This document shows, one piece after another, positions 1 through 4,215 of a stretch of 4,215 nucleotides of DNA. The notes under the pieces are model-generated. The model was not told the DNA's origin. It saw only the letters and a program-made list of their open reading frames with translations, and did not search any database. The stretch covers positions 1 to 4,215 of the IMG/VR virus record IMGVR_UViG_2526164633_000019; one strand, written 5' to 3'. This DNA comes from a virus. Taxonomy: Duplodnaviria > Heunggongvirae > Uroviricota > Caudoviricetes. The translations under genes and the position numbers were made by a program. Positions within the stretch are counted from its first letter, which is position 1; the number at the start of each line of letters is the position of its first letter.

Positions 1-180
1 ATGCAGCTCGCGCAGAAGGTCGTATAGGTGGGCGTACGACCTAAATACCAAGAAGAAACATGGCAGCAAATGCGGCGATTGCTGGAGAAGGGCATCCCCC
101 GTAAGCAGGTTGCAATCATCTATGATGTGGCTGTTTCCACGCTTTATAAGAAGTTTCCGGCGTCATCCTTTCAATCCTAA
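1..180 (+). pseudogene. Serine DNA invertase (Hin/Gin/Cin/Pin family), 3' end only; 5' part lies outside the window; reading frame disrupted around nt 25-43
   Basis: Frame 1 from nt 28 translates VGVRPKYQEETWQQMRRLLEKGIPRKQVAIIYDVAVSTLYKKFPASSFQS, stop TAA at 178-180. This is the characteristic C-terminal helix-turn-helix DNA-binding domain of Hin-family invertases and, from memory, is closest to e14 Pin. Immediately upstream, the conserved AARAEGRIGGR motif is in frame 3 (nt 3-35, stop TAA 42-44), while frame 1 has TAG at 25-27. Both conserved blocks therefore cannot be read in one frame. Confidence 0.6.
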
Positions 181-197
181 ACCTTGGTTTAAGAGAA
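172..197. other. Crossover site 1 for the invertase (gix/hix/cix-like 26-bp site: 12-bp half-site, 2-bp core, 12-bp half-site), at the invertase-proximal border of the invertible segment
   Basis: CAATCCTAAACC-TT-GGTTTAAGAGAA has the ACC-NN-GGT dyad that defines Hin-family sites. It matches the reverse complement of site 2 at 17 of 26 positions. It overlaps the last three codons and stop of the invertase. Confidence 0.65.
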
Positions 198-1751
198 CTC
201 GGTACCAGCGGTGAAAAGATCCCCCTGTTGAGCACGGCTAACACATGGAGTTCACGCCAGACTTTTAACGGCGGGATCACCGGGGCGCTGACAGGGAACG
301 CCGACACCGCGACGAAATTAAAAACAGCCATAAACATTAATGGCGTCAGATTCGATGGTTCTACGAACATTTCGATACCAACAATTACGTCTAGAGGACG
401 CGTTACTGCGCTTACCGGTACAACGCAAGGTGCTGCTACTGGATTGCAGATGTATGAGGCATACAACAATGGTTATCCGACGACTTACGGGAATGTACTT
501 CACCTGAAGGGAGCTGCATCCACTGGTGAAGGCGAGTTGCTCATTGGCTGGAGTGGCACAAATGGCGCTCATGCACCAGCTTTCATTCGATCCAAAAGAG
601 ATAGCACTGCTGCGGCATGGTCCGAATGGGCACAGATCTATACGTCAAAAGATTCCGTTCCCGGCGTTAATACCAAAGGGAATCAGGACACCTCTGGTAA
701 TGCGGCTACAGCGACCAAATTGCAGACGGCGTGTACTATCAACGGTGTCTCGTTTGACGGTTCTAAAAATATTGAGCTAACGGCGGCAGATTTAAATCTT
801 GAGCAAACTGTAGAATTAGCCGCAGGAGCATTACAGAAAAACCAGAACGGCGCAGATATTCCGGGAAAAGATACCTTCACCAAAAATATTGGTGCCTGCC
901 GCGCATATAGCGCATGGCTGAATATTGGTGGCGATAGTCAGGTCTGGACAACCGCGCAATTTATTTCGTGGCTGGAGAGTCAGGGAGCATTTAACCATCC
1001 TTACTGGATGTGCAAAGGCTCATGGGCTTATGCAAATAATAAGGTCATTACAGATACAGGTTGCGGAAATATTTGTCTTGCAGGTGCTGTGGTGGAAGTT
1101 ATTGGCACTCGCGGCGCAATGACCATACGCGTTACTACGCCGAGCATGTCCAGCGGTGGCGGAATTACTAACGCTCAATTCACTTATATTAATCATGGTG
1201 ATGCTTATGCTCCTGGCTGGCGAAGAGACTACAACACGAAAAACCAGCAGCCTGCATTTGCTTTAGGGCAAACAGGAAGCAGGGTTGCAAATGATAAAGC
1301 TGTTGGCTGGAACTGGAATAGCGGCGTTTATGATGCAGATATCAGTGGCGCATCGACATTAATCCTCCACTTCAATATGAATGCGGGGAGTTGCCCTGCT
1401 GTACAGTTCCGCGTGAATTATAAGAACGGCGGTATCTTTTATCGTTCAGCGCGTGATGGTTATGGCTTTGAAGCTGACTGGTCAGAGTTTTACACCACAA
1501 CCCGCAAACCCTCTGCGGGGGATGTTGGTGCATATACGCAGGCAGAATGTAACTCAAGGTTTATTACAGGTATTCGCCTGGGCGGTCTGTCATCTGTTCA
1601 GACATGGAATGGTCCCGGCTGGTCTGACAGGTCAGGTTATGTCGTTACAGGTTCAGTTAACGGAAACCGTGATGAATTAATTGATACAACTCAGGCAAGG
1701 CCAATTCAGTATTGCATTAATGGGACGTGGTATAACGCGGGGAGTATTTAA
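186..1751 (+). CDS. Silent (off-orientation) alternative side-tail-fibre C-terminal receptor-binding cassette (Sv'-like); no start codon of its own, would be fused to the constant N-terminal fibre region after inversion
   Basis: The open frame runs continuously from site 1 to TAA at 1749-1751. The ORF-track start at 228 is a TTG with no Shine-Dalgarno sequence. The frame through site 1 encodes ILNLGLRE, parallel to VIEYLGLQE encoded through site 2 in the expressed fibre. It contains two copies of a tail-fibre repeat motif (GNAxTATKLxTAxxINGVxFDGSxNI) and ends with RPIQYCINGTWYN, like the expressed fibre. Confidence 0.8.
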   Translation, partial: GLRELGTSGEKIPLLSTANTWSSRQTFNGGITGALTGNADTATKLKTAININGVRFDGSTNISIPTITSRGRVTALTGTTQGAATGLQMYEAYNNGYPTTYGNVLHLKGAASTGEGELLIGWSGTNGAHAPAFIRSKRDSTAAAWSEWAQIYTSKDSVPGVNTKGNQDTSGNAATATKLQTACTINGVSFDGSKNIELTAADLNLEQTVELAAGALQKNQNGADIPGKDTFTKNIGACRAYSAWLNIGGDSQVWTTAQFISWLESQGAFNHPYWMCKGSWAYANNKVITDTGCGNICLAGAVVEVIGTRGAMTIRVTTPSMSSGGGITNAQFTYINHGDAYAPGWRRDYNTKNQQPAFALGQTGSRVANDKAVGWNWNSGVYDADISGASTLILHFNMNAGSCPAVQFRVNYKNGGIFYRSARDGYGFEADWSEFYTTTRKPSAGDVGAYTQAECNSRFITGIRLGGLSSVQTWNGPGWSDRSGYVVTGSVNGNRDELIDTTQARPIQYCINGTWYNAGSI

Positions 1752-1753
1752 CG

Positions 1754-2287
1754 ATGATGCACTTAAAAAACATTACTGCTGGCAACCCTAAAACAAAAGA
1801 GCAATACCAGCTAACGAAACAATTTAACATCAAATGGCTTTATACAGAGGATGGGAAAAACTGGTATGAGGAACAAAAGAACTTTCAGCCTGATACGTTG
1901 AAAATGGTCTATGACCACAACGACGTTATTATTTGTATTGAAAAGGATGTTTCAGCAATTAATCCAGAAGGCGCAAGCGTCGTTGAGGTTCCTGATATTA
2001 CAGCAAATCGCCGGGCTGATATTTCGGGTAAATGGATGTTCAAAGATGGCGTAGTGATAAAGCGAACTTATACCGAGGAGGAACAAAGGCAGCAGGCAGA
2101 GAATGAAAAACAAAGCCTGTTGCAACTTGTCAGGGATAAAACCCAGCTATGGGACTCACAGCTACGGCTGGGCATCATTTCCGACGAGAATAAACAAAAA
2201 TTAACTGAGTGGATGCTCTATGCGCAGAAAGTCGAATCTACAGACACCTCCAGCCTGCCAGTAACATTTCCCGAACAACCTGAATGA
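1754..2287 (+). CDS. tfa: Tail fibre assembly protein (Tfa/U'-like chaperone) paired with the silent fibre cassette
   Basis: 177-aa ORF starting ATGATG at 1754, 2 nt after the stf' stop, with GGGGAG Shine-Dalgarno 9 nt upstream. Its N-terminal two-thirds is highly similar to the convergent ORF 2846-2316 (shared [18 protein letters not shown] and [15 protein letters not shown] blocks); its C-terminal third is divergent. Position directly after a fibre variable region is typical of tfa. Confidence 0.85.
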   Translation: MMHLKNITAGNPKTKEQYQLTKQFNIKWLYTEDGKNWYEEQKNFQPDTLKMVYDHNDVIICIEKDVSAINPEGASVVEVPDITANRRADISGKWMFKDGVVIKRTYTEEEQRQQAENEKQSLLQLVRDKTQLWDSQLRLGIISDENKQKLTEWMLYAQKVESTDTSSLPVTFPEQPE

Positions 2288-2290
2288 GAC

Positions 2291-2320
2291 AAGGCCCGAT
2301 AGCGGGCCTTAATTTTTATT
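2291..2320. terminator. Intrinsic terminator hairpin between the two convergent tfa genes (strong for + strand, weaker for - strand)
   Basis: Perfect 8-bp stem AAGGCCCG (2291-2298) / CGGGCCTT (2303-2310) with 4-nt loop ATAG, followed on the + strand by AATTTTTATT. It lies 3 nt after the tfa' stop. The T-rich tail overlaps the stop codon of the minus-strand tfa. Confidence 0.6.
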
Positions 2321-2846
2321 CAGGCTTTTGTGGCCATTCAGGATTTGCCGTATCCACACGGCTGACCAGAACACTGTAGCGTTCCCATGCTTCCAGTCGT
2401 GTGCGTTCCTCGTCTGTTGCCATATTCAGCCTGACAGCGCGTTCCAGCGGCTGGATGACTGATTCAGCTTCGGAAAGCAATGCGGCCTTTTGTGATTCGG
2501 CCTGTTGTTGCTGTTCGTCTGCCGTATAAATCCGTTTAACTACAGCTCCATCCTTAAACATCCACTTTCCTGAATCATCAGCGCGGCGGTTGGCTGTAAT
2601 ATCAGGAACCTCAACGACGCTAAAACCTTCAGGGTTAAGCGTGGAGGCATCTTTAGTGATGGCGACAATAATATTATTTGCATCGTAAACAATCTTTATT
2701 GTGTCTGGCTGAAAGTTTTTCACTTCCTCATACCAGTTTTTATCGTCTTCGGACCATAACCAGATAACATCAAAATTCTTTGTTAGCTGATATTGTTCTT
2801 TCGTTTTAGGATTTCCAGACTTAATATTTTTTAAATGCTGCATCAT
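2316..2846 (-). CDS. tfa: Tail fibre assembly protein (Tfa/U-like chaperone) paired with the currently expressed fibre
   Basis: 176-aa ORF. Its ATGATG start directly abuts the TAA stop of the upstream fibre gene (translational-coupling arrangement). It is paralogous to ORF 1754-2287 over the N-terminal ~115 aa and divergent at the C-terminus. Confidence 0.85.
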
Positions 2847-4215
2847 TTACACCTGTGCGACGTTATACCATGTGCCATTGATGTATTTTTGTATTGGCCT
2901 GAAGATGGCTTCATCATCGCCATCTACTTCACCAATGATTCTTAATCCGGTAATTGCGTGTCCGGCTTTTTCATAACGACCACCACGCGCCATCAATTGA
3001 ACAACTCGCGTACCCAGGCGAACATCTCTCACATAACGTGAGTCAAAATTACCATAATTGCCGGGAATAACTTGCGCACCGCAAAGCCAGTTGCCATTGT
3101 TGTCCATGTACGCCTGACCATCGGTGCCATTGGCTGTCCTTGAATTATTAATCATGTAAAAACCAAACTGGTAGTTACCAAGTCCACCGACAAAAAATTT
3201 GCGTTCTGCATGGTCTTGTCTTAACAAAGCCTGCGCAGAACTTGTTGATACTGCGTTTCTACCAAAAATGACATTCTGGTTTCGCATATCAATCCATGAG
3301 GTTGAACCACTATTAATAGCAAACCTGTTTGCATACACCCAGGAGTTAGTTGTTATATCTCCTGTAACATCCAGACCATGCCCCATGCTTATCCGACCAG
3401 TTCTAAGGTTAATCGTAAAGGGGCGTAATGGCCCTATATCACCATTTTCTCCCTCATTCTCTCGTGTAGGGATGATATGCAGGCATTCTTCAGAACGGCG
3501 AAAAATGGCACCAAAAGATGAATTAAATATCCTCAGTGCATTGACTGTCGATATTTTTACTTCACTGCTGAAAAGGGCTTTAACAAGAACAGACAAAGCA
3601 TCCCATTTAAGATTCATCAGGTCTTTTGTTGTGGTACTCTGTTTGCTTCTCCATTTGAAATATTCATTGCCGTTGTCGCCTGTTTCAAACCACATGTATG
3701 AATCAGTATCGCTGTCGGCATCATTTTTAAATCCAATCTTTGCCCAGTCAGTATTCCGAATCCAGGCAAGGATTGAGTCGTTTTCAAAAGTAAGCCCACC
3801 GGACAAGGTATCGCCATTCTTTTGCACGGCGTTCCTGGCCCTGTTTACCGTTTCCTGTAAACCGAGGTATTCGATAACAGCGGCAACGGTCGATTTCGCA
3901 AGAATATCCCGCCCGACTTTTGTCAGGGTTGCCAGGCTGGCGACATCATTCCCCGTAAAATACGGAAACTTGTCTGCCGCAGTAGCAAGCCCGGCCAGCG
4001 CCGTCAGGGTGGCATCTTTCGGTTGCTTACCCGCAAGCGCTTTAGTCATGGTGGTCGCAAAATTCGGGTCGTTTCCCAGCGCCGCCGCTAACTCGTTCAA
4101 CGTATTCAGTGCGTCAGGCGACGAGTCTACAAGTGCGGCAATCGCGGCCATCACATAAGCCGTGCTTGCGATCTGAGTATTATTAGTCCCTTTTGGCGCA
4201 GTTGGCGTTGTTGGC
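2847..4215 (-). CDS. stf: Side tail fibre protein in the expressed (on) orientation; 5'-partial, N-terminal constant region continues beyond the window end
   Basis: The minus-strand frame is open from the window edge (…PTTPTAPKGTNNTQIASTAYVMAAIAALVDSSPDALNTLNELAAALGNDPNFATTMTKALAGKQPK…) to TAA at 2849-2847. The N-terminal motif is, from memory, characteristic of lambdoid Stf-type side tail fibres. The ORF-track start at 4154 is an internal GTG, not the true start. The constant/variable junction coincides with site 2. Confidence 0.85.
   Translation of the reverse strand, partial: PTTPTAPKGTNNTQIASTAYVMAAIAALVDSSPDALNTLNELAAALGNDPNFATTMTKALAGKQPKDATLTALAGLATAADKFPYFTGNDVASLATLTKVGRDILAKSTVAAVIEYLGLQETVNRARNAVQKNGDTLSGGLTFENDSILAWIRNTDWAKIGFKNDADSDTDSYMWFETGDNGNEYFKWRSKQSTTTKDLMNLKWDALSVLVKALFSSEVKISTVNALRIFNSSFGAIFRRSEECLHIIPTRENEGENGDIGPLRPFTINLRTGRISMGHGLDVTGDITTNSWVYANRFAINSGSTSWIDMRNQNVIFGRNAVSTSSAQALLRQDHAERKFFVGGLGNYQFGFYMINNSRTANGTDGQAYMDNNGNWLCGAQVIPGNYGNFDSRYVRDVRLGTRVVQLMARGGRYEKAGHAITGLRIIGEVDGDDEAIFRPIQKYINGTWYNVAQV
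3852..3877. other. Crossover site 2 (gix-like), embedded in the tail-fibre coding sequence at the constant/variable junction
   Basis: Plus strand TTCCTGTAAACC-GA-GGTATTCGATAA. By recollection this matches the phage Mu gix site (TTCCTGTAAACCGAGGTTTTGGATAA) at 23 of 26 positions. It is in inverted orientation relative to site 1 and encodes VIEYLGLQE in the fibre frame. Confidence 0.75.

Follow-up and report, generated by a model that had tools for sequence, protein, structure and literature searches.

A single inserted base breaks the frame of a P1-type cin gene close to the end of an Escherichia coli draft contig and is probably a consensus error

The stretch of DNA analysed here, referred to as the window, has 4,215 bp and is the whole of contig AIHB01000050.1 from assembly GCA_000250235.2, a 2012 draft of E. 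coli DEC12B. AIHB is listed as E. coli DEC 12B, O111:H2, phylogroup B1, in a published strain table (PMC4959244). The window carries the end of a DNA invertase gene, two crossover sites and a set of tail-fibre genes, which are arranged as follows:

1-44, + strand: end of the cin catalytic-domain frame (frame 3), with codons A129-R139, the out-of-frame residues T, T and a premature TAA at 42-44
36, + strand: single inserted A, directly after codon 139, with no homopolymer there
28-180, + strand: residual frame-1 open reading frame of 50 aa with a GTG start (GenBank EHX27768.1; HTH_7)
172-197: cixL crossover site, identical to P1 cixL and overlapping the cin stop codon, with the central TT at 184-185 (after the P1 annotation of cixL and its crossover point)
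183-1751, + strand: Sv', the silent variable part of the tail fibre, in frame starting with the LGLRE codons at cixL
1754-2287, + strand: tail-fibre assembly gene U' (Caudo_TAP), silent orientation
2316-2846, - strand: tail-fibre assembly gene U (Caudo_TAP), expressed orientation
2847-4215, - strand: mosaic tail-fibre gene (type P1 S / P2 H), with its frame open as far as the contig end
3852-3877: Mu/P2-type gix site within the tail-fibre codons YLGLQE, with the + strand centre GA at 3864-3865 (TC in the cixL register)

The open reading frames, together with the annotation of 99%-identical plasmids, reveal the convergent set Sv', U', U and Sv of the P1/P7 C segment, and both U genes match Caudo_TAP. 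The first ~620 nt of Sv' correspond to the left 0.6-kb inverted repeat of that segment. The gene caller used on the record split the tail-fibre frame into a 146-aa C-terminal piece (2847-3287, - strand) and a 296-aa ORF (3268-4158, + strand). The latter is probably spurious, because it lies antisense to the open tail-fibre frame. An exact look-up of this ORF and of the ORF at 450-1751 gave AIHB01000050.1 only. Between the convergent genes U' and U, at 2291-2310, a GC-rich hairpin is followed by a T-run (AAGGCCCGATAGCGGGCCTT AATTTTTATT) in a terminator-like manner; across the whole scan, terminator-like sites were no more frequent than in shuffled sequence.

Judged by its sequence, the broken gene at the left end is cin, which in phage P1 and its relatives encodes a serine DNA invertase; the window has the last 180 nt of this gene. 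Near-identity to P1 cin and a cixL site overlapping the stop codon were both found. Compared to P1 cin (AF234172), the 3' 180 nt differ by the inserted A and by two substitutions, A39 and C168. The intact WP_000904921.1 allele of the D6/P1-like plasmids NZ_CP122828.1 and NZ_CP183151.1 exhibits the same synonymous A39 and C168 but no inserted A, while the invertible segment of these plasmids is unrelated to the window past about nt 325. A39 (CGA, compared to CGG in P1) is a natural synonymous variant that is present in intact alleles and separate from the lesion. Since window nt 1 is cin nt 383, the contig lacks the first 382 nt (5') of the gene and holds only codons 129-139 of the Resolvase catalytic domain. 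The recombinational (Fis) enhancer, annotated at cin nt 19-90 in P1, is also located upstream of the contig start. For intact Cin, Pfam assigns residues 3-135 to Resolvase and residues 138-181 to HTH_7, and by these boundaries the break is placed in the GGRRPK arm between the two domains, at the start of the DNA-binding domain. The closest solved structures to the repaired Cin are those of Gin (3UJ3 and 4M6F; alignment over residues 1-182, E = 3e-89), and its C-terminal end aligns with Hin's DNA-binding domain (on hixL, 1HCR and 1IJW).

The frame break itself is a deterministic reading of the sequence in which no statistical signal is involved. In frame 3, nt 3-41 of the window encode AARAEGRIGGRTT, followed by the stop codon TAA at 42-44. 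Frame 1 contains a TAG at 25-27 and then reads VGVRPKYQEETWQQMRRLLEKGIPRKQVAIIYDVAVSTLYKKFPASSFQS as far as the TAA at 178-180; this reading after the TAG is a complete helix-turn-helix domain, VGVRPKYQEETWQQ...FPASSFQS. The 50-aa ORF in frame 1 matches PF02796 HTH_7 with E = 2.3e-17, above the curated cut-off, and encodes Cin residues 140-186 from its fourth codon (nt 37). The lesion comprises exactly one base, an A inserted at window nt 36 (GGGCGT[A]CGACCT), and the cin stretch carrying this extra A reads GGGCGTACGACC. Deletion of any single base among nt 35-37 regains the reading ...GRIGGRRPKYQEE... of intact invertases. In agreement with this, window nt 1-230 are identical at 229/229 positions, save the inserted A36, to nt 6001-6229 of L004, a locus of E. 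coli plasmid NZ_CP122828.1 that encodes the intact 186-aa Cin WP_000904921.1. The first-pass annotation had described just this arrangement, with frame 3 running into the TAA, frame 1 preceded by the TAG, and a single extra A, removable by one deletion in the GGRRPK arm, between the catalytic end and the HTH of an invertase; on re-reading every coordinate proved correct, and the alignment to intact cin that it had proposed confirmed the single base. Because one A is inserted after codon 139 and the TAA follows, the HTH domain is out of frame, and the two domains that Cin, Gin, Hin and Pin (Din) carry on one chain via a GGRxPK arm are separated in the deposited sequence.

Within window 33-39, A36 splits the GTCGAC hexamer (SalI/AccI/HincII) of the intact alleles and makes the palindrome CGTACG. 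We regard the overlap of A36 with GTCGAC as a coincidence. An engineered lesion at this site (SalI) was considered and rejected, since filling in a SalI end should add 4 nt and an AccI end 2 nt, whereas a single base is present here.

Frames 3 and 1 have 17 nt in common (nt 28-44, GUGGGCGUACGACCUAA), the GTG at nt 28 has an AAGG 8 nt upstream of it, and a complete HTH_7 domain is encoded by the 50-aa ORF. These features would suit a functional break, that is, a +1 ribosomal frameshift in nt 28-44, a split invertase, or a free HTH peptide that binds cix. We give such a function hardly any weight. On inspection, the overlap GUGGGCGUACGACCUAA has no slippery sequence for +1 re-pairing of the P-site tRNA, and a programmed frameshift was rejected on this ground. 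The conserved GGRRPK arm would moreover be altered in any shifted product, and the arrangement occurs in no other genome searched, so it is not conserved. In this invertase family the active site is brought to the crossover point only if the catalytic and the DNA-binding domain belong to one chain. The matched structures of Gin and gamma-delta resolvase support this one-chain requirement of serine recombinases, which also argues against a functional break.

If the inserted base is real, and assuming no damage to the 5' part of cin beyond the contig, translation would yield Cin 1-139 followed by two foreign residues, TT. Such a protein would keep the catalytic domain and helix E and would lose the minor-groove arm and the HTH domain, the parts that bind the cix half-sites and that in Hin receive the activating Fis contacts. 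The residues of the DNA-binding domain contacted by Fis are conserved in Hin, Gin and Cin (PMC3798978). Since the whole HTH_7 domain would be missing, a product ending after residue 139 should be inactive, and the allele should be a null allele if the base is real. The proposal of the first-pass annotation that the invertase is inactive therefore stands as a reading of the record, in which the product, if real, has no HTH_7, but as a statement on biology it probably fails, the lesion lying so close to the end of the contig.

Since the window is a complete draft contig, the lesion is 36 nt away from a contig end. A36 is the sole indel over 3,815 aligned nt compared to the nearest relative. The 50-aa ORF has exact matches on AIHB01000050.1 only, among 153 billion gene positions, and a 26-mer across the insertion gave 0 matches in the GTDB representative genomes, IMG/VR and the JGI metagenomes. 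Short-query BLAST found no 100% match to the allele in 5,426 complete E. coli genomes or in PLSDB; the best alleles in these databases reached 99.6% identity, with one gap. Looked up in three versions, the predicted truncated protein of 141 aa had no record. Furthermore, cin nt 251-561 aligns end to end in ~144 finished P1-like plasmids, with no indel among the matches listed; a real frameshift in this part of cin is therefore rare. Two finished plasmids carry a broken cin, with 6 gaps in L009 (NZ_CP031917.1) and 3 gaps in L010 (CP042632.1), nearly all at homopolymer runs, and these are most likely long-read errors rather than pseudogenes.

P1-type Cin N-terminal fragments of many lengths (60 to 156 aa) are found at contig edges of independent drafts (P0002, P0016-P0027). 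It follows that cin is a frequent break point in drafts and that the region is hard to assemble. A recurrent break zone at cin codons 123-130 was considered, as fragments of 123-125 and 127-130 aa exist, but those of 60, 90, 108, 114, 137 and 156 aa exist too; the idea was dropped because drafts break all along cin with no single codon favoured. A repeat shared with another invertase was also rejected as the cause of the break at cin nt 383. The P2-type invertase is ~72% identical to cin with identical runs of at most ~14 nt, and the ~144 finished records contain no partial matches of this cin stretch, which supports the rejection. One could assume a mixture, in which two cin copies or a heterogeneous culture forked the assembly graph and the contig end represents a minority or erroneous branch. 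The frequent breaks of draft assemblies inside cin would agree with a mixture, and so would the end of the contig 35 nt past the variant base, a distance probably of the order of short-read assembler k-mer overlaps. Finished genomes, though, contain no paralogue with long identical stretches to this part of cin, and we judge a mixture to be very unlikely.

The remainder of the window is a mosaic of two element types. Nucleotides 1-3815 match P7-like plasmid prophages at 98.8-99.1% identity; over nt 201-3000 the closest plasmid, pSA20094620.3 (L001), shows only about 6 mismatches. From nt 3801 to 4215 the window agrees, with 0 mismatches, with the tail-fibre gene H of chromosomal prophages of the P2-like type (ETEC-2264 and UMNF18). 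Along the tail-fibre gene the sequence is of the L001/P7-plasmid type to 3035, of the pGF31-D type at 2744-3635 and identical to the P2-prophage H type at 3757-4215, and the first two types are identical across their overlap at 2744-3035. Among the complete E. coli genomes, PLSDB and the phage collection, no single record matches window 1-4215 over its full length. Plasmid pGF31-D (L011, NZ_CP172156.1), a 39-kb phage-plasmid, has the same Sv variant at 1589-3238 and shows only one mismatch to window 2899-3635; there the variant belongs to a Mu-like layout in which the gix site adjoins the gene for a 184-aa invertase. This tail-fibre tip is thus in circulation between elements that are unrelated.

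After nt 3815, P1 and P7 enter the right 0.6-kb repeat leading to cixR, whereas the window lacks both and continues as the P2 type. Compared with its own reverse strand, the window has no 0.6-kb inverted repeat, while P1 has one of 636 nt at 98% identity and the P7-like plasmid one of 628 nt at 82%. Of the two repeats of the C segment only the left one is present (174-799), with 82% identity to the right repeat of L001. Where the sequences part, only half a gix site (TTCCTGTAGATT) is left in P1 and P7, while the window has a full site (compared to L001 6315-6980 and L003 6315-6950). At the opposite end, a comparison of window 4155-4215 with L006 6292-8706 places the right contig end ~57 nt from tandem repeats of the H gene (units beginning TAQDATTARKGIVQLSSATNSTSETLAATPKAVKAAYDLANGKY). 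These repeats are a typical short-read break point and probably explain the assembly break at this end. The mosaic pattern fits natural tail-fibre mosaicism and, equally, one wrong join; a wrong join would have linked a P7-like plasmid to a P2-like prophage carried by the same strain, somewhere within their common stretch 2744-3035. For a real hybrid, it is plausible that a P1-like element replaced the middle of its S gene by a double crossover with a P2-like prophage.

Exactly two crossover-type sites were found in the window, compared to 0.14 expected by chance, and its gix site has the same sequence as both sites in the P2-like prophages L006 and L007. In the known systems the natural partners match, TT with TT in P1 and the P7-like plasmid and TC with TC in the P2-like prophages. 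The P1/P7 C segment has two inverted cix sites with the same TT centre, whereas in the window cixL with TT is paired with gix with TC. The Mu G segment and its P2-like counterparts have gix at both ends, which fits the right site of the window, while the left one is cixL. For Hin, changing one base pair among the core nucleotides stops ligation in the inverted orientation (PMC4817059). Since a mismatch of this kind blocks the step in Hin, the segment nt 185-3864 would by analogy be locked whatever the state of cin, and a helper invertase in trans would be no rescue, provided that the contig is faithful. Inversion would still leave the reading frames correctly joined, since the first Leu of the common LGL motif is specified by CTT as well as by CTC. 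Members of this invertase family can work across prophages: the P segment of e14 is inverted by PinQ, which belongs to the rac prophage (PMC12529663). Rescue in trans is therefore reasonable in principle. The earlier claim that the segment may be locked unless a related invertase acts in trans is supported to this extent, but in a faithful contig the TT/TC sites would lock the segment even with a helper.

The identity of the gene, the exact lesion, its distance to the contig end and the uniqueness of the allele are observations, from which we infer the origin of the extra base. Because of the position at the contig end, the unique allele, the intact cin in finished plasmids and the frequent breaks of drafts in cin, we consider A36 to be probably a consensus error. 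A thinly covered or ambiguous contig end would have resulted in a wrong base in the deposited consensus, and the cin of the strain would be intact. The first-pass annotation had mentioned an assembly error as a caveat; with the lesion this near to the end of a contig, the caveat becomes the leading explanation. Some features speak against an error. The insertion lies outside a homopolymer and does not belong to the commonest platform error type. The contig contains 24 homopolymer runs of at least 5 bases and no other indel relative to its relatives over the aligned stretches, and is on the whole of good consensus quality; at its other end the last 400 nt match relatives with 0 mismatches. In addition, if the hybrid cixL/gix arrangement is real, cin would already be useless there, and gene decay would be expected.

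The same features suit a real, recent mutation private to DEC12B, which would make cin a pseudogene for a 141-aa protein without the DNA-binding domain and abolish inversion of its own segment. For this case we envisage that a P1/P7-type element swapped the right part of its tail-fibre gene with a P2-like prophage. In this exchange cixR and the right 0.6-kb repeat would have been lost and a gix site of a different central dinucleotide gained, so that inversion was blocked and cin was no longer under selection. The clean single-base insertion in an otherwise identical allele, at a site without a homopolymer and in a contig otherwise free of indels relative to its relatives, is in agreement with a private mutation. 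The mismatched crossover centres, TT and TC, in place of the TT/TT pair of P1 or the TC/TC pair of the P2-like prophages, point in the same direction, as does the effect of a single core base pair in Hin. The contig was moreover assembled through both crossover sites unbroken, which is at least compatible with a fixed orientation. On the other side stand the 36 nt to the contig end, the lack of the allele in every other collection searched and the absence of frameshifts in this cin stretch from finished plasmids among the matches listed. The hybrid architecture that would relax selection is itself unique and could be a chimeric join. A private mutation is thus possible in our view, but we rate it as unlikely.

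If the contig were faithful in both respects, it would represent a natural hybrid tail-fibre switch that has been disabled twice, by the TT/TC cores and by the frameshift, freezing in one orientation. We regard this frozen switch as unlikely. In such a switch, the leftover 50-aa HTH peptide could possibly still bind cix-type sites. If both anomalies are true, the locus would illustrate, on a modest scale, how a phage host-range switch decays in nature once unrelated prophages have recombined. A one-base break in one draft contig, whether consensus error or private knockout, matters little, and a frameshift that lies only a few dozen bases from the end of a draft contig should be given no biological reading without the reads. 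Until its hybrid cixL/gix arrangement has been confirmed, AIHB01000050.1 should not serve as reference for an inversion system, be it intact or locked.

Cin, the cix sites and the invertible tail-fibre segment of P1 are a textbook host-range switch, and the window contains nothing new in kind. Compared to the structures of Hin and Gin, the DNA-binding domain of the window is out of frame with the catalytic domain. With phage P1 (AF234172) the window shares the gene order cin, cixL, Sv', U', U, S and an identical cixL with the same overlap with the stop codon, but its cin frame is broken after codon 139, and in place of the right 0.6-kb repeat and cixR it has the P2-type H gene and gix. The P7-like elements, namely phage P7 (AF503408), the Salmonella plasmid pSA20094620.3 (NZ_CP030188.1) and the E. 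coli plasmid NZ_CP182338.1, all have an intact 186-aa Cin, while the window has the extra A and diverges from them completely after nt 3815. With the P2-like prophage modules (ETEC-2264, UMNF18 and phage P88) and the Gin/G segment of Mu, it shares the end of the H gene and the gix site with the central TC. The invertase of these P2-like prophages is a protein of 195 aa whose gene runs on the opposite strand and has a DNA identity to cin of only about 72%, and their left site is gix, whereas that of the window is cixL.
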